Of a stretch of DNA of 64,000 bases, positions 8,072-62,025 are shown piece after piece. The stretch comes from Marsupella aquatica. Taxonomy: Eukaryota > Plantae > Marchantiophyta. Under the pieces are notes generated by a model. The model ran no database searches and was not told the DNA's origin. It saw nothing but the letters and a program-made list of their open reading frames with translations. Where the stretch lies: NCBI GenBank assembly GCA_973895155.1, contig OZ316891.1, forward strand, positions 4,807,708 to 4,871,707, read 5' to 3'. Each line of letters starts with the position of its first letter. The first letter of the stretch is position 1. The position numbers and the translations under genes were made by a program.

Positions 8072-8283
8072 TTAGAGCCGGCTGCAAATTCCGCCCCCAG
8101 GTGCGATTTGGTTTGGTTGGTTAATCGGTTGGTTGGCTCGCTGTCTGGCTGGTTGGCGTTTGATCTGCGTGAGGAGTCGCTTGGCATTCGCTGCGCTTTT
8201 ACGTCTTATGGGAAACGAAACCCTATTTCCTCTTCTGCACGCGGTTTTTGGGGGCTTTGGGGCATCTGATGGGGAATTGAGGG

Positions 8284-8573
8284 GGTCAAGGAGTTTCTAC
8301 GGGGTAATTCGGTGAGGTCTGGACTTGTGATGTGGTAGGTGGTGATTGTTGAAAGGAATGGATGCCAGTCTGCCGTCGAAGTTCCTGCGTTAGAGCAAGG
8401 GTTCAATTGAGTACCATTATTTTGAGCGTGAGAGGTCAAGGCTTTTCTTTGGGGTAATTCAGTGAGGTCTGGACTTGTGACGTGTAAATGGGTGATTGTT
8501 CGAAGGAATGGATGGCAGTCCGCCGTCGAGGTGCCGGCATTAGAGCAAGGGTTCAATTGAGTACCATTCTTTT
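8284..8573. repeat. Tandem duplication, 150-bp unit x2, with further degenerate copies to about 8770
   Basis: GGGGTAATTC at 8301 and 8451. TTAGAGCAAGGGTTCAATTGAGTACCATT is present in both units. Confidence 0.88.
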
Positions 8574-10302
8574 GGGCACCCGTCGGGGAATTGAGAAAGG
8601 TCTGGCCTGGACTCATGATGTGGCAGTGAACGAGAAGAGGGAGGGATGTTCTCCTGTTATTCGTGCGGGAATCTCTTGGGGAATTGTGTGAGGGGCCAGC
8701 CCAGAGGACTTATGATGTGGTGTTGGTGATGGTGGTTGACAGGAAGGGATGTTGGTCTGCCGCCCGGGATTCAGAATAATCAAGAAGGAATGAAACGAAG
8801 CGGGAGTTCAAAAACCAGGTGTGAGATCTTTCTTTGTGAAATTGATTGTCGGGCAGAATTTGGCTACGGTTTGCGAAGGTTGAATTTCTTCCCCGTTCAT
8901 CGAATTGAAAGAAGGGATTCCAGTTAGTGACACTCTTCGGTAGCAGAAACTGACCATTGAATTTCAAGTGGATGTTGAAAATTATGCCACGCTGGTGTCA
9001 TTCTCGTAGGGTTGAATCCCGCTACTCTCCTGATAGCGCGTACAGCCTTAAGGAAGCCGTAATAGCTGCGATATTATATTTTCCTCTGTCCACACTGGGC
9101 ATTGGCAGATTGAGTATATAAGGGATCCTTCAACGGTCGCAGTTTGTCTTATTTGTTATGAACAGCCTCCATGACGACATTAACATGCGCAACAAGGACA
9201 CGAATCGAGTCTTTAAGGGTTATTCTTTCCGCAAGAAGTTTCTTGTGGTGGGTTCGGTGCTACGATCAATTTGAAAAGGAAGCCAAACAAATTTGTTGAG
9301 CATTCCATACCTCTTTATATCTGTGAAAGTGAACAAGTTTACTCGTGGAAGGTTTTCGGAAGGTTTGAAGGGCTCTTGCGTGCATTCATGGGAAACTCGA
9401 GTGCGTTCTCCTAGCACTTGTCATTGAAGAGTGGCAGGTTTCCAATTACATGTAGCAATCTCTAGATTATTTCTGATTTCAGGACTGTTGATTCTTTCCG
9501 AAACACTTCTTCTGGCTAAGTTAAATTGTCCTGCTCCTTTTGGTTTGATGATGTGATGGTCATCGCGGCACCTTACCTGGTCGTCTGTCTTTGTCTCCGA
9601 CATTTGTTGCAAGGTAGATTCCAATTGATGCATCTGAGCTGGATGCCTGGTTTGCATTGTTGTTGGGTCTTTGACAGTAATGTTTGTGGTGGTTGTAGTG
9701 TCTTATGTGATTTTCTTACAAAATTCGAGGCCATTTAGGGATTCAGGGGCCCTTTATGTGTAACTGGACCCTTTTCCTGAATAGCTTGCTGTTTGCAGCA
9801 CAGTGCAACATGCCCCATGCGAAAGAGCTCTGTTTGGTGAATTGCTCGGGTTCAGCCCAATATGCAAGTCATCGGCCTGTCTTCACATCAAGGGTGTGGA
9901 CAGCCATTTGCGCTTATGGTTTGGTTGATGTGGAAGGTTCTCCTGGAACACTTCACCCATTCCACATTTAGGAACTTACTCGGAAGAAAAAGATAAGATC
10001 ATGTAAGAAATTATCTCACTAACATGTAAAATTTAGTGCTATCTCGGCCCTGAAACAGATTATGTGAGCTTATGGATATCGAATTCATAACCTTGCGGGT
10101 TAGTACTGATCTTCCAGTGTTTAGCACATTGCTGTTTGGCTGGTGGCGCTGTATGAGTATAATTGCACTGTGTTCATGTTTCGCGAGAGTTAAGTGATCC
10201 GAAGGACGTAGAAACGGAGTTGAGGTCGTTGTAAGTACCATCCATTCGCCACAAATTGTCCGTGTGTTGGGGCAGAAATTTTCAAAACAATATCTACAAG
10301 AT

Positions 10303-15371: not shown

Positions 15372-15669
15372 GTAAGTATTTATTCTAGCTTCTCTCTCGG
15401 TCTCTCTCTATGTTCTGTCAAACTATGTCTTGGGTGACTCATGTGTACCATAGTTCCTAGATACAAGAGTATATAGCCTTGGCTTGTACTGTAGATGTTA
15501 TCTTCTGCATCTTCGATTATCAATATCCTTTTTGATAACGTCCTCTTGCAGTCTGACCCACGATGTTGCATGGAGCCAATTGTTTCTTGATGAGATTCAT
15601 TAATTGGCAGGAGAAGTATTCAAATGGTTACATTTAGGGCTGACTGATCTTGTGACTGTTCACTTGTAG

Positions 15670-16988
15670 TCTCAAGTTTTATGGCTTGGTACTGGTTGAA
15701 AAGAAAGGATGTTCCCATCATATGGTTCTCTCACACAGAGTTGAAGTTAGCAACAAACTACTTCGATTCCAATCTCATCGTAGGTGAGAGTGATAAGTCC
15801 AGACTCATTAAAGGGTACATGCCCAACAGAAGCCCTGTAGTGGTGAAGAGGCTCAAGAAGGGTGTTGGTACGTCCATTCAAAAAGTACTCAATGAAATCA
15901 ATGTCCATAGATACCTCACCAAATTGTACCATGGAGACGTCTGTCGTCTGCTGGGCTACTCCACCTGTCCGGAGGATCCGCTCCTCGTCTACGAATACAT
16001 GAACAATGGCAATCTGAGAGAGCACATGAACGAGAGATACGGAGACTATATCTGGCAAAACGCTCCTTGCAGGTTAGCGATACTGATTGACATTGCAAGC
16101 GGCATTGGAGAGCTTCATTACAACAGCAAAATGCCAGTCTATCACCGTGACATCCAACCATCCAACATTCTCCTAGACAACAACTATCGTGCCAAAATAT
16201 GTGATTTTGGCGACGCAGTGGTTGTTAAGAGTGAGGAAGACAGGCACAAACACCCAGTATGTGGCTCACTCGGGTACTTAGATCCAGTCTTCAGATCCAC
16301 AGGGCGGTGTGATGATAAGACGGATGTGTATAGCCTTGGAGTGATTATGCTTGAACTCGCCACAAGTTTAAAAGCATGGGATCCATTTCGGCAAACAAAG
16401 TATGGAATGAATCCTTTTCTCGTTGGGTTGATGATAGAACGGATGAAAGATGGGACTGCAGAAGAGTACTTGAGGCCAGGCAGGCCATACTACATTGGAA
16501 CGCCATACAACATGGAAGGGACTGCCATAGTGATAGAATTAGTTCGTGTGGCACTGTGGTGCTGTTGCCCAGTTCTACGACTGCGACCTCGTGCTGATCA
16601 AGTGGTGTCCGTGTTCCTTCAGATTCAATCCCGATGGGTCACCCCGGGACTGAGGGCCATTCAGCAGATCACAGAGGGAGGCATCATGCCCACCCTCTGT
16701 GGTCCTCTGGAAGCCATGCCTCTCGGTGACAAGAGACCTCCTGAGAAGGAGAGGCCTGTCTTCTTTATGAAGCTTCCCGAGTCAGCCGTAAAAATTGACC
16801 TCCCCCCTCAACCGAAAGCTCAGTCAAATTCACAAGCTCCTCAACCAAACAATCAACAACTCCCTGCTGGTAACAATCAATCTAAACCCCAAGCACCTGG
16901 AAAGAACAATCAACCAAAATCAACGCCACAAAATCAAACAAAAATGCCTGAAGGCAAACAATCCGGGAAGGAACAGCCAAAAAAGTAA
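15670..16988 (+). CDS. RLK/Pelle-family (WAK/LRK10L-like) kinase domain, atypical, with a Gln/Asn/Pro/Lys-rich tail; exon 2 of the chimera
   Basis: 435-aa ORF from 15681 with FSHTELKLATNYF, VVVKRL, LLVYEYMNNGNL, HRDIQPSNILLD, DFG, GSLGYLDP and DVYSLGV. The acceptor TTGTAG at 15664-15669 is in phase with the upstream exon. No signal peptide or transmembrane helix. Confidence 0.92.
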
Positions 16989-57199: not shown

Positions 57200-57726
57200 A
57201 TGAAATCGGTTGAGGTCCAAGCCAAGCTGCCGTCCGACCAAACTCCAGAGGCCAAAGCAGTGCGATCCAAACTGTTTGATCAGTTTGACCCAAATGGCAA
57301 TGGTTATCTCTCGTTAGCGGAAGTCGACAGGGGTGTTCGTGATGTTTTGGGCCTCGATGATGTGTTTCACGCCAAGGCTGCGATCATGAGAGCATTCGAA
57401 GCTTCCAAGAATGTTGGAAAGAGCAAAGCCAAGTACGGAGCCGATTTTGTGGAGCGCTCGGAGTTCCGCTTACTCCTCCTCTACCTCGGCAAATACTACG
57501 AGCTGTACGAGATGTTCGAATCGGTCGACAGCAGTGGCGACAAGAGAATCAACAAGGCAGAGTTCAAGACCGCTGCTGCTCATTTGGAGAAGGGGGAATC
57601 AAGGTCGAGAATGCTGACGCTGAGTTCGACAGAATCGATGCCAATAAGGGAGGATTCGTCCTTTTCGACGAGTTTGCCGACTGGGGACTCAAAAAGCACC
57701 TCCACCTTCAGGCTGACGAAGAGTAA
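57200..57726 (+). CDS. Flagellar calcium-binding protein (FCaBP/calflagin)-like EF-hand protein, with a 1-nt frameshift at 57592-57596
   Basis: LPSDQTPEAKAVRSKLFDQFDPNGNGYLSLAEV...RAF...ADFVERSEFRLLLLYL...ELYEMFESVDSSGD parallels trypanosomatid FCaBP as recalled. Adding one base in the G5 run restores (W)GIKVENADAEFDRIDANKGGFVLFDEFADWGLKKHL...stop (175 aa). Either an assembly error or a recent pseudogenisation. Confidence 0.85.
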
Positions 57727-57756
57727 GAATTCAGTATGTAGCTATAGATTCAGCTC

Positions 57757-59409: not shown

Positions 59410-62025
59410 CTAGTCACTTTGCGATGATCTCATCTTATATGTAAGAACTGGTCTTAACAAGGCTACAACAGTACAGAGATTAGCTGATACCAGATCTGCA
59501 ACAACACAAGCAGCATCCTTGTATGCCTCAGGTCTCTCTTCGTACAACAACGCCTTGTCGTCACATACTACACGAGACCCTAATGGAGTAGTAGTGAGGT
59601 CATTTGCGTTGGGATGGCGAACCTTCCCACCTATTCTCGCAGCAGAACGAGCTAGCACCCGCCCTGCACCATGTGCCAGAGACCAACCGCTGTTTGCAAA
59701 CTGCACTTGCTCAACTGGTTGCACAAGGTAGCTAAAAGCACCTCTGGAACCAGGAATCACTACTGGGCCTTTGTCTGAGGGTGCAGCGCCTTTCCTGTGT
59801 AGCCACAGACTCTTTGCACGAAAACTCTCGTCGGGAATCCCCACCTGAGGGAATCGGAGAACACCAATGTCAATTTCTTGCACACAAGTAAAGGCTTATC
59901 CCATTATCGCAAAGATATTCTATTAGACAAATCAGCAAACCTACATATTGCCATCCAGGGACCACAACAGAGGTTATGCTGCAGTTTCATCCAGACCATG
60001 AGAGAATATCTGGAAGCAGATATCTGTTATAATTGGGAACTTGGTTTTGAATAACGATCCTTACCTCCACAACGCTGTTGTGGGTGATGTCTAATAGAAT
60101 ATCTTTAGGACTGGCATTTAGCTGTTCTAAAAGTCTTGTAGCAATTACACGTCTGTTGACTTGTGCCCATTTGCAAGCCTGGTCATGTGCAGCAAGGTAA
60201 TCCTGGGCCTCTCGTGACTCCTGCATGCAGGAAGAGAGTTATGGTAAGAGCGGAACTGACGAATTGAAAAATGTCCGTCAAGGTTGCGAAACAACTTGCG
60301 CGTGTCCGAACTATGAAGGAGTTTGAACACGTCTAGAACACATCCCCATGATAAGAGAACGAAGACATCGACAGAACTGTTTACCACAGATATCCCCGCT
60401 GAGCCAGCTCGTTCAGTATGTGTTTTGAGAATGCTTTGCCCAAATCCTCGAGAACCAGAATGGACACAGAGATAAACATCTTCATAGTTCAGTCCAAGTT
60501 TCTGTGCTAGATCCGCATCTTCAATACTCTCTATAGTCTGCAGCATTTATCAATCATGGAAATCACATCAGCCATGCACGAGTCTTGTTCTCAAGGATAG
60601 GTCAACTTGTTACAGCTGAAGAATATGAGGATACCTGCAACTCTGCAAAATGATTGCCCCTCCCTACAGTCCCTAGGGAATCTCCGTCGAAAGGAGTTGC
60701 CTGGACCCCAGCCAGGGCTAATTCACCTGGAAAATCTCACACAAATGGACATGCCCATCAGGGACTGAGAGAACACGGATTTTGACAATGCAAGAGCCAT
60801 AAGGGTAACATAACGATACATGTAAGAAAGGAAGAGTACATCACCTGCAGTATCACCATCCCATGGTCCCTCCAGCTGCAAACTGGCAGCCCAGCGGTCT
60901 AATGTGCGAGATTTGCTACCTGCAGAAGCTTTTAAGGATGTCTTTGCTAGTAGCATGCCACAACCGATGTCTGAGCCAACGAGAGTTGGATAGATGATTC
61001 CCTGAGTTGCAATTGTAGCCCCAATTGGACACGAAGCTCCTACATGCAAGTCCGGGAGTCCCACACCGAGTACCACGCCAGGTAATGCAGCTGCCCATTT
61101 CAGCTGCTTCAGTGCCTGTACATCCACAAAGCTATCCTTTGCTAGCACTATGACTTGCGCAGTTGCACTATCATTACCGTGCAGCTGATCTGACATCCAT
61201 CACATACCCAGTGATCAGGAAGGTACATTGCTAAGGTGATGCAGCACTTACTTCAAAGATGGCATTGAGGGACTATTTGATGCAGAGGATTTCGAAAACT
61301 GGATTGTTCTTGTTCCAATGGACAGATTGTAAGTCAAACCGGAGTCAAGAACAAATTCGGATTCATACTACCTAGCTCTTCCAAGACATCAATTCCACAA
61401 GCCAACTTCTGACATTGTGTCTGTCTATGTTCGCAACTTTCACTCCTGTCTGGCCGACCTTCTCTCAGAAAAACTTCTACTCAGAAAAGTTGCCCCCATT
61501 CAATCCACAGAGTCTTTCGTATTGAAACTGCACATCCAAATGAAAACCTCACAAGGAAATATTTAGAGTGAATTTTAGCAGTGGTATCCTGTTATTCTTG
61601 ACCTTACGAACACAGACCCCTCATTTATATTGCAAGCAAACTAGCAACGAGGAAGAAGGGGGATGAGTAGGTATCTCGGGCAGTGTACCTGGAACTTTAT
61701 CCATCACACAAGGGTCCCCTGCAGAAACGTACAGAGTTCCACCTAACCTAATTTGGGCCTCAGCGTGATCCTGGTCTCCTGCAGAAAGCTCCTCTCCTCT
61801 CGTGTTGAAGAGCCTCAAGTTCGTCAGAGGGATTCGCAATTTGTTGGCAGCCGCTTGTTGAACTTCCATCAGTACAGAGGAAACCATCCCGCCGCTGCCT
61901 GACGCACCCGCAACGACAGTTTTTGAATCTGTACGCTTCACATTGCGAACCAGCTTCAAAGCTATCTTCTCCTTCGAGGCCGGAGCAGAGAACGTGACTG
62001 GATTTGCATTTCTCTCCTCCTCCAT
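59410..62025 (-). CDS. rtcB: RtcB-family RNA ligase, release-factor-H-coupled (RtcB2-like) subtype, with an N-terminal DCX/ubiquitin-like domain, about 505 aa, 6 exons
   Basis: Exons 62025-61689, 61189-60845, 60726-60635, 60537-60385, 60220-60065 and 59844-59410 (1518 nt, GT-AG, phases consistent). Motifs: GLPDLHVG, YPTLVGSDIGCGM, LGTVGRGNHFAELQ, VHSGSRG, DITHN, WLHRKGAAP, IPGSRG, SLAHGAGR, LYEERPEAYK, LRPVLTYK. Confidence 0.93.

Follow-up and report, generated by a model that had tools for sequence, protein, structure and literature searches.

How did a gene whose product resembles the bacterial RNA ligase RtcB2 come to reside, interrupted by introns, in the nuclear genome of the liverwort Marsupella aquatica, and what may it be doing there? 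These questions are raised by a locus within a 64-kb stretch of DNA (the window), for which the first-pass annotation had proposed horizontal acquisition, either by transfer of bacterial rtcB2 directly into the plant lineage, with the partner gene prfH left behind and introns gained, or from another eukaryote. The presence of RtcB2 in eukaryotes has been known since 2022, when Tian et al. (PMC9304027) reported 98 eukaryotic RtcB2 sequences, mostly from fungi and plants. What the present analysis adds is a predicted ubiquitin-like domain, a single group spanning eukaryotes and an orthologue in an experimentally tractable moss, and the locus is accordingly read as part of an old eukaryotic family, retained in patches, and no longer as the outcome of a gene transfer specific to plants.

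Structure and integrity of the gene

The gene model extends from 62025 to 59410 on the minus strand and comprises six exons, predicted to yield 1518 nt of spliced sequence encoding 505 amino acids (aa) and a single terminal stop. The borders of the five introns (499, 118, 97, 164 and 220 nt; phases 1, 1, 0, 0 and 0) are all GT-AG, and all nine motifs sought were found in the translation: LPDLH (at residue 157), DIGC (186), GNH (251), HSGSRG (284), THN (355), HRKG (377), PGSRG (392), HGAGR (419) and EE.PEAYK (463). The features are, in the direction of transcription:

61689..62025, minus strand: exon 1, aa 1-112, with a short N-terminal leader and the predicted ubiquitin-like domain; 73% identity there to the Calypogeia fissa protein P0001
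61720..61968, minus strand: predicted beta-grasp (ubiquitin-like; DCX/KHA-like) domain, aa ~20-102
61190..61688, minus strand: intron 1, GT-AG, 499 nt, phase 1
60845..61189, minus strand: exon 2, in which the RtcB domain begins; LPDLH (157), DIGC (D186, C189)
60727..60844, minus strand: intron 2, GT-AG, 118 nt, phase 1
60635..60726, minus strand: exon 3, with GNH (N252, H253)
60538..60634, minus strand: intron 3, GT-AG, 97 nt, phase 0
60385..60537, minus strand: exon 4, with HSGSRG (H284)
60221..60384, minus strand: intron 4, GT-AG, 164 nt, phase 0
60065..60220, minus strand: exon 5, with THN (H356, N357)
59845..60064, minus strand: intron 5, GT-AG, 220 nt, phase 0
59410..59844, minus strand: exon 6, with WLHRKGAAP, IPGSRG, HGAGR, EERPEAYK and the stop
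59671-59673, minus strand: codon of H419 in exon 6, the predicted guanylylated histidine

The six exons, five GT-AG introns and intact frame described in the first-pass annotation were reproduced by splicing and by a tblastn search with the Calypogeia protein, which maps to these six segments with 73-87% identity. Three alternative acceptors of intron 1 and an acceptor of intron 5 at 59877 were also tried, and each breaks the frame. In a second, closely related organism (two runs), all seven listed indels fall outside the exons: four are intronic (two in intron 1 and two 1-nt insertions in intron 5) and three lie upstream. Among 40 of the 65 substitutions there are 8 synonymous changes per 373 synonymous sites and 7 non-synonymous changes per 1142 non-synonymous sites, which gives a ratio of ~0.3. 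A single 18.6-kb contig covers the entire gene, and the run from which it comes may be the source of the window itself. That we are dealing with a plant nuclear gene is thus borne out by bryophyte orthologues, the intact frame and the exon-avoiding indels. The exon junctions are predicted from the DNA sequence, which is the one point in favour of a mis-joined model; orthologues in five named bryophyte species, branching as expected, argue against contamination, and the intact frame, the indels missing the exons and a non-synonymous rate of ~0.3 of the synonymous one argue against a pseudogene. We consider the chance that any of these three explanations is correct to be negligible.

Several other features of the window may be mentioned. 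A gene for an EF-hand protein of the FCaBP (flagellar calcium-binding) type occurs at 57200-57727 on the plus strand (Pfam, 3e-30); its last EF-hand shifts frame after ~57590, so that either the gene is frameshifted or a pseudogene, or the assembly is in error. An uninterrupted 446-aa protein kinase frame at 15648-16988 on the plus strand (Pkinase, 2e-28) resembles the domain of plant receptor-like kinases and has a Q/N/P-rich tail, and an open frame at 8206-8709 on the minus strand contains two copies of a stretch of ~45 residues, which points to a local tandem repeat.

Assignment to the RtcB2 clade and the active site

The Pfam family PF01139 was matched by all five RtcB-coding exon frames. 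Against TIGR03073, the Calypogeia protein P0001, used as a proxy, scored 346.9 (cut-off 271.8) and two window exons taken singly scored 134.2 and 73.5; against NF007153 the proxy reached 406.1, slightly under the cut-off of 407. We also built our own profile from 78 GTDB RtcB2 sequences, against which the spliced window protein scored 462.9, near the value of 508.3 for the E. coli RtcB2 and well above the 133-203 of 12 other RtcB paralogues. In agreement with this, a quick mixture-model tree separated 72 RtcB2 sequences, including that of E. coli, from three outgroup sequences with an SH-aLRT value of 99. The profile scoring thus upholds the original assignment of the predicted protein to the RtcB2 (release-factor-H-coupled) clade, and an identity of ~25% to the archaeal/metazoan tRNA-splicing RTCB, as against 42-50% to RtcB2, sets it apart from the former. 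A 2026 review (PMC13247085) holds that RTCB has been lost entirely from land plants, a statement that in its context refers to the archaeal/metazoan type; as a statement that land plants lost RtcB, it needs qualifying.

The metal-binding and guanylylation motifs are retained, as previously annotated. Alignment to Pyrococcus RtcB (Asp95, Cys98, His203, His234, His329 and His404), with the roles of the ligands taken from PMC10630183, indicates that the metal site (D186, C189, H253, H284 and H356) and the GMP-accepting histidine (H419) are all present, and 13 of 13 active-site positions are conserved in all 55 eukaryote-type sequences compared. A predicted model of the whole Calypogeia proxy, which is 86% identical to the window protein, has a pLDDT of 91.9 and matches solved RtcB structures (Foldseek against Pyrococcus RtcB, E 1.8e-28).

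A predicted ubiquitin-like domain at the N-terminus

Exon 1, which has no Pfam or NCBIfam match, is predicted to encode a ubiquitin-like (beta-grasp) domain (the N-domain) that was absent from the first-pass annotation. Modelled alone with AlphaFold (pLDDT 84.5), it adopts a beta-beta-alpha-beta-beta fold, and its top Foldseek matches are SUMO1, PB1, ubiquitin and FAT10 (E ~1e-3), with TM scores by target length of ~0.55-0.74 against single ubiquitin-like chains. Weak Pfam matches were obtained for some of the 25 aligned homologous N-domains (KHA in eight, DCDC1-type models in seven each), the copy from the window itself matching neither kind of model. Searches of the ESM Atlas gave scores of at most 0.89 (CIDE-N, KHA and other ubiquitin-like families), which we treat as leads only, and a homodimer prediction scored 0.01.

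A profile of the N-domain found 437 matches among 1.84 billion representatives, and 51 of the 144 new sequences examined also have the RtcB domain; several of the top matches are DCDC1-type repeat proteins. A word-based search with the same profile, which was crowded, returned eight sequences. Within the set of 309 sequences used for phylogenetic analysis the profile matches 51, every one of them in the eukaryote group, and the domain was found in none of the 78 GTDB bacterial RtcB2 frames (read from stop to stop). RtcB2 proteins with the N-domain occur in chytrids, Mortierellales, a basidiomycete, an aphelid, Nuclearia, Capsaspora, Amoebozoa, Heterolobosea, a euglenid, a kinetoplastid, labyrinthulids, the green algae Bryopsis and Ostreobium, and bdelloid rotifers. 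The domain also heads proteins of other kinds, namely two dual-specificity-phosphatase-like proteins (P0283 and P0299), a methyltransferase (P0343) and two chytrid proteins without a Pfam match (P0231 and P0232). The homologue from Ancoracysta (P0141) has ~370 residues without a Pfam match before its RtcB domain, and that from Ostreobium (P0125) has ~90 extra residues before the N-domain, either a targeting signal or a gene-model artefact.

Distribution among bryophytes

The window protein is 86% identical to that of Calypogeia fissa, to which it is sister inside the bryophyte group in our trees. Its best matches (best 120 of 2544) are from liverworts, i.e. Calypogeia, Riccia fluitans, R. sorocarpa and Marchantia paleacea, and the cluster of the next match contains the Physcomitrium patens protein XP_024369469 and a 520-aa member found on 366 contigs, each of at most 2255 nt, consistent with transcripts. 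Since the bryophyte group contains both liverwort and moss orthologues, the gene predates the split of these two lineages, and so does any domestication of it. No named hornwort, vascular plant or streptophyte alga, and likewise no Marchantia polymorpha, Ceratodon or Sphagnum, is among the matches listed (best 120 of 2544, 120 of 6061 and eight of eight), which comprise cluster representatives only, so that absence is weak evidence. The best full-length non-bryophyte match among those listed is from the fungus Hyaloraphidium (46.8%), and the RtcB domain is ~50% identical to many bacterial copies. Metagenome contigs scanned with a bryophyte alignment yielded 55 loci, none with more than 48% identity, and thus no second plant locus for intron comparison. 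In the ESM Atlas the first cluster retrieved with the moss protein is 98% eukaryotic, with Ascomycota commonest; it may be the moss protein's own cluster.

Phylogenetic position and origin

A FastTree analysis of 309 sequences places all named eukaryotes on one branch with a support of 99. In a tree inferred with IQ-TREE (LG+G4) from 49 chosen sequences, the 29 of eukaryote type and the 20 bacterial ones fall on opposite sides of a split (100/99) that is kept in 100% of 200 bootstrap trees. The bacterial sequences were drawn from the best 80 of 573 obtained from 22 of the 64 parts of the GTDB scan. In an enlarged tree (best-split count), a branch that includes none of 79 GTDB or E. coli sequences gathers 81 of the 82 sequences carrying the N-domain, the exception being P0335, a long branch placed among bacteria; 19 of the 100 sequences on the eukaryote branch have no N-domain match. 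As judged from these sequences, the fused gene arose once in eukaryotes, which we consider well supported.

Inside the eukaryote branch, fungi with Nuclearia (99/90), the Amoebozoa-type sequences (96/92) and Heterolobosea (97/94) form coherent groups, the pattern expected under vertical descent. Conflicts with the species tree also occur: Capsaspora joins ulvophytes (94/93), and the kinetoplastid and the bdelloids branch away from their kin. The bryophytes have a long stem and stand apart from the ulvophytes in the best tree. With the backbone held fixed, we regrafted them on all 89 branches, using 5000 resamples, a number below that recommended for IQ-TREE. A position beside fungi (p-AU 0.09-0.43), labyrinthulids (0.29) or Bryopsis and Ostreobium (0.25) is not rejected, and that on the stem of the group likewise survives. 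As for the root, the test retains 57 of 95 positions, and the mixture-model tree, the source of our outgroup-rooted results and a quick tree only, is rooted inside fungi. We infer the bacterium-to-eukaryote direction, the date and the route by which bryophytes came to the gene.

These results bear directly on the scenario of a plant-specific acquisition from a bacterial donor, which does not hold up well: the gene belongs to a eukaryote-only group extending across supergroups, and its N-domain is not found in the bacterial copies. A direct transfer of rtcB2 into the plant lineage might draw on the ~50% identity of the RtcB domain to bacterial homologues and on the survival of a split joining bryophytes and bacteria against other eukaryotes (p-AU 0.356 in the free test, 0.097 with the fixed backbone), but it would require an independent fusion of the same N-domain, it would have to be reconciled with the eukaryote/bacteria split held by every bootstrap tree, and 36 of the 38 positions within bacteria are rejected (the other two with p-AU 0.053 and 0.060), each of the 38 costing at least 30 log-likelihood units. 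Because of the eukaryote-only clade, the shared N-domain and these rejected placements, we regard it as highly improbable. More weight, albeit short of an even chance, is due to the possibility that the ancestor of mosses and liverworts obtained the gene, with the N-domain already attached, from a fungal or protist source and not via the green lineage. The fungal or labyrinthulid neighbourhood allowed by the regrafting, the separation of bryophytes from ulvophytes in the best tree, the match to Hyaloraphidium and the lack of a named streptophyte alga among the matches listed would all fit. Against it, the sister position to Bryopsis and Ostreobium is allowed as well, the bryophyte stem is long with no donor supported, and the absence from streptophyte algae rests on the best 120 sequences, cluster representatives only. 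A single early acquisition followed by heavy loss, perhaps with some eukaryote-to-eukaryote transfer, is likely a better fit than direct transfer from a bacterium to a plant.

RtcB2 loci without PrfH

According to Tian et al. (PMC9304027), PrfH is confined to bacteria, and a tblastn search of the window with three PrfH proteins (best E 0.47) agrees with the earlier remark that no PrfH partner is encoded there. Of 80 bacterial RtcB2 loci, a release-factor GGQ motif accompanies the ligase gene on the same strand in 46, nearly always immediately downstream, and both tested neighbours of this kind pass TIGR03072. The remaining 34 have no adjacent prfH-like motif (five of them have less than 700 nt downstream), so a stand-alone RtcB2 is not unusual and, as far as these sequences indicate, occurs in bacteria as well. 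Loci of Myxococcota without a prfH-like motif (same strand, 1.5-2.5 kb downstream) are L005, L009, L010, L013, L015, L018, L024, L026, L047, L051, L053, L058, L062 and L064. RtcB2 is further found on viral contigs, at five loci, none with the N-domain. Four place with bacteria; the placement of the fifth (798 aa) is unsure, and it was excluded from the repeat tree. Viral contigs L108-L111, one of them 608 kb long, carry a bacterial-type RtcB2 with a GGQ motif downstream.

Predicted biological role

Our preferred reading, to which as a whole we give an even chance, is that the protein is an RtcB2-clade ligase with a predicted ubiquitin-like domain, descended from one early bacterial acquisition followed by many losses, and that in the cytosol it would reseal small-subunit rRNA nicked in the decoding centre. 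The sequence retains the two-metal site (D186, C189, H253, H284 and H356) and the H419 that would take GMP. By analogy with the RtcB family, the enzyme would be guanylylated in an Mn2+/GTP-dependent reaction, pass the GMP on to a 3'-phosphate and join this end to a 5'-OH. The substrate would be a nicked small subunit, not tRNA, judging from the E. coli RtcB2, the only tested member found, which mends the break between A1493 and G1494 of 16S rRNA, repairing nicked 30S subunits but less than 2% of damaged tRNA (PMC9304027). PrfH may be dispensable, since 30S and vacant 70S are repaired by RtcB2 unaided and PrfH only speeds up, about threefold, the repair of translating ribosomes (PMC13166195). 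The N-domain begins at about residue 20 and leaves little space for a transit peptide. Stalled 80S ribosomes would be split, before repair of the 40S subunit, by the cell's own rescue factors, Pelota/Dom34-Hbs1-ABCE1. More speculatively, the ubiquitin-like domain might serve as a docking module to damaged ribosomes or the rescue machinery, replacing the operon link to PrfH. Counting against a role in decoding-centre repair, Tian et al. (PMC9304027) state that no equivalent of colicin E3 acting on eukaryotes is known.

The main rival on function is a general cytosolic ligase for RNA breaks (tRNA halves, mRNA, many rRNA sites) arising under oxidative, drought or nuclease stress. Human RTCB and Trl1 mend many rRNA breaks (bioRxiv 10.64898/2026.05.26.727988), a long stem of its own and an extra domain mark the eukaryotic group, and the bacterial loci without an adjacent prfH-like motif suggest that the clade may have other uses. 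Yet the E. coli RtcB2 is strictly specific for nicked 30S (PMC9304027), tRNA ends are already handled by Trl1/RNL in plants and fungi (PMC3400036), and the patchy retention would better suit a conflict-specific role; we thus hold general repair to be rather unlikely. The known 16S rRNA substrate (PMC9304027) and the long N-terminal extension of the Ostreobium homologue could instead be taken to suggest repair of bacterial-type ribosomes in plastids or mitochondria, but the folded domain starts within about 20 residues of the first methionine in the window protein and most homologues, in many of them within five, which makes an organellar role quite improbable.

Returning to decoding-centre repair in the cytosol, a bolder version of it, unlikely as it stands, would have the ubiquitin-like domain dock on split or ubiquitin-marked 40S subunits in place of the link to PrfH, the enzyme being eukaryotes' own ligase since about their last common ancestor, kept mainly among bacteria. 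If true, the lineages retaining it would be bryophytes, early fungi, amoebae, bdelloids and siphonous algae, and undiscovered bacterial or fungal toxins nicking the 18S decoding centre would be implied.

Ribotoxin repair exercised without PrfH had been suggested as a possible new role of the window gene. The idea had already been published as a prediction, namely of 40S repair without PrfH, in the Discussion of Tian et al. (PMC9304027). These authors left open what would cut the eukaryotic decoding centre and how damaged 80S would be rescued without PrfH; with an intact orthologue in Physcomitrium patens, where knockout is routine, and the N-domain as a candidate link to rescue, both questions become testable.

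Comparison with known systems

In the literature searched, subscription journals lying outside its coverage, we encountered no earlier mention of the domain fusion or of a single eukaryotic clade, and nothing on RtcB in Marchantia or on liverwort RtcB and horizontal gene transfer; the few papers that mention RtcB together with Physcomitrium, with bryophytes, or with ubiquitin-like domains, fungi and RNA repair deal, judging from their listings, with other subjects. An RtcB tree of 1,183 sequences, including protists and three diplonemid clades (PMC12699882), may already show this eukaryotic clade. We have further drawn on PMC6514570 and PMC10946435.

With the bacterial RtcB2 of the E. coli rtcB2-prfH operon (TIGR03073; PrfH, TIGR03072) the window protein has the clade and the active site in common, and it is 42% identical over 380 aa to an E. 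coli RtcB2 encoded next to prfH. Unlike its bacterial counterparts, the window gene has spliceosomal introns, a predicted ubiquitin-like domain of ~85 aa and a place on a eukaryote-only branch, and no prfH accompanies it in the window. The archaeal/metazoan RTCB (HSPC117) and the E. coli RtcB1 have the same fold and metal/GMP ligands, whereas human and Pyrococcus RtcB are only ~25% identical to RtcB2 of the window type. Beyond RtcB2 itself, the N-domain profile matches the DCDC1 doublecortin-like and KHA ubiquitin-like domains most closely; in contrast to DCDC1 and KHA proteins, the RtcB2 of the window carries a single copy attached to an enzyme. Finally, the window gene is very likely of the same kind as the eukaryotic RtcB2 set of Tian et al., whose Discussion names no species and presents neither a tree nor a domain architecture nor a test.
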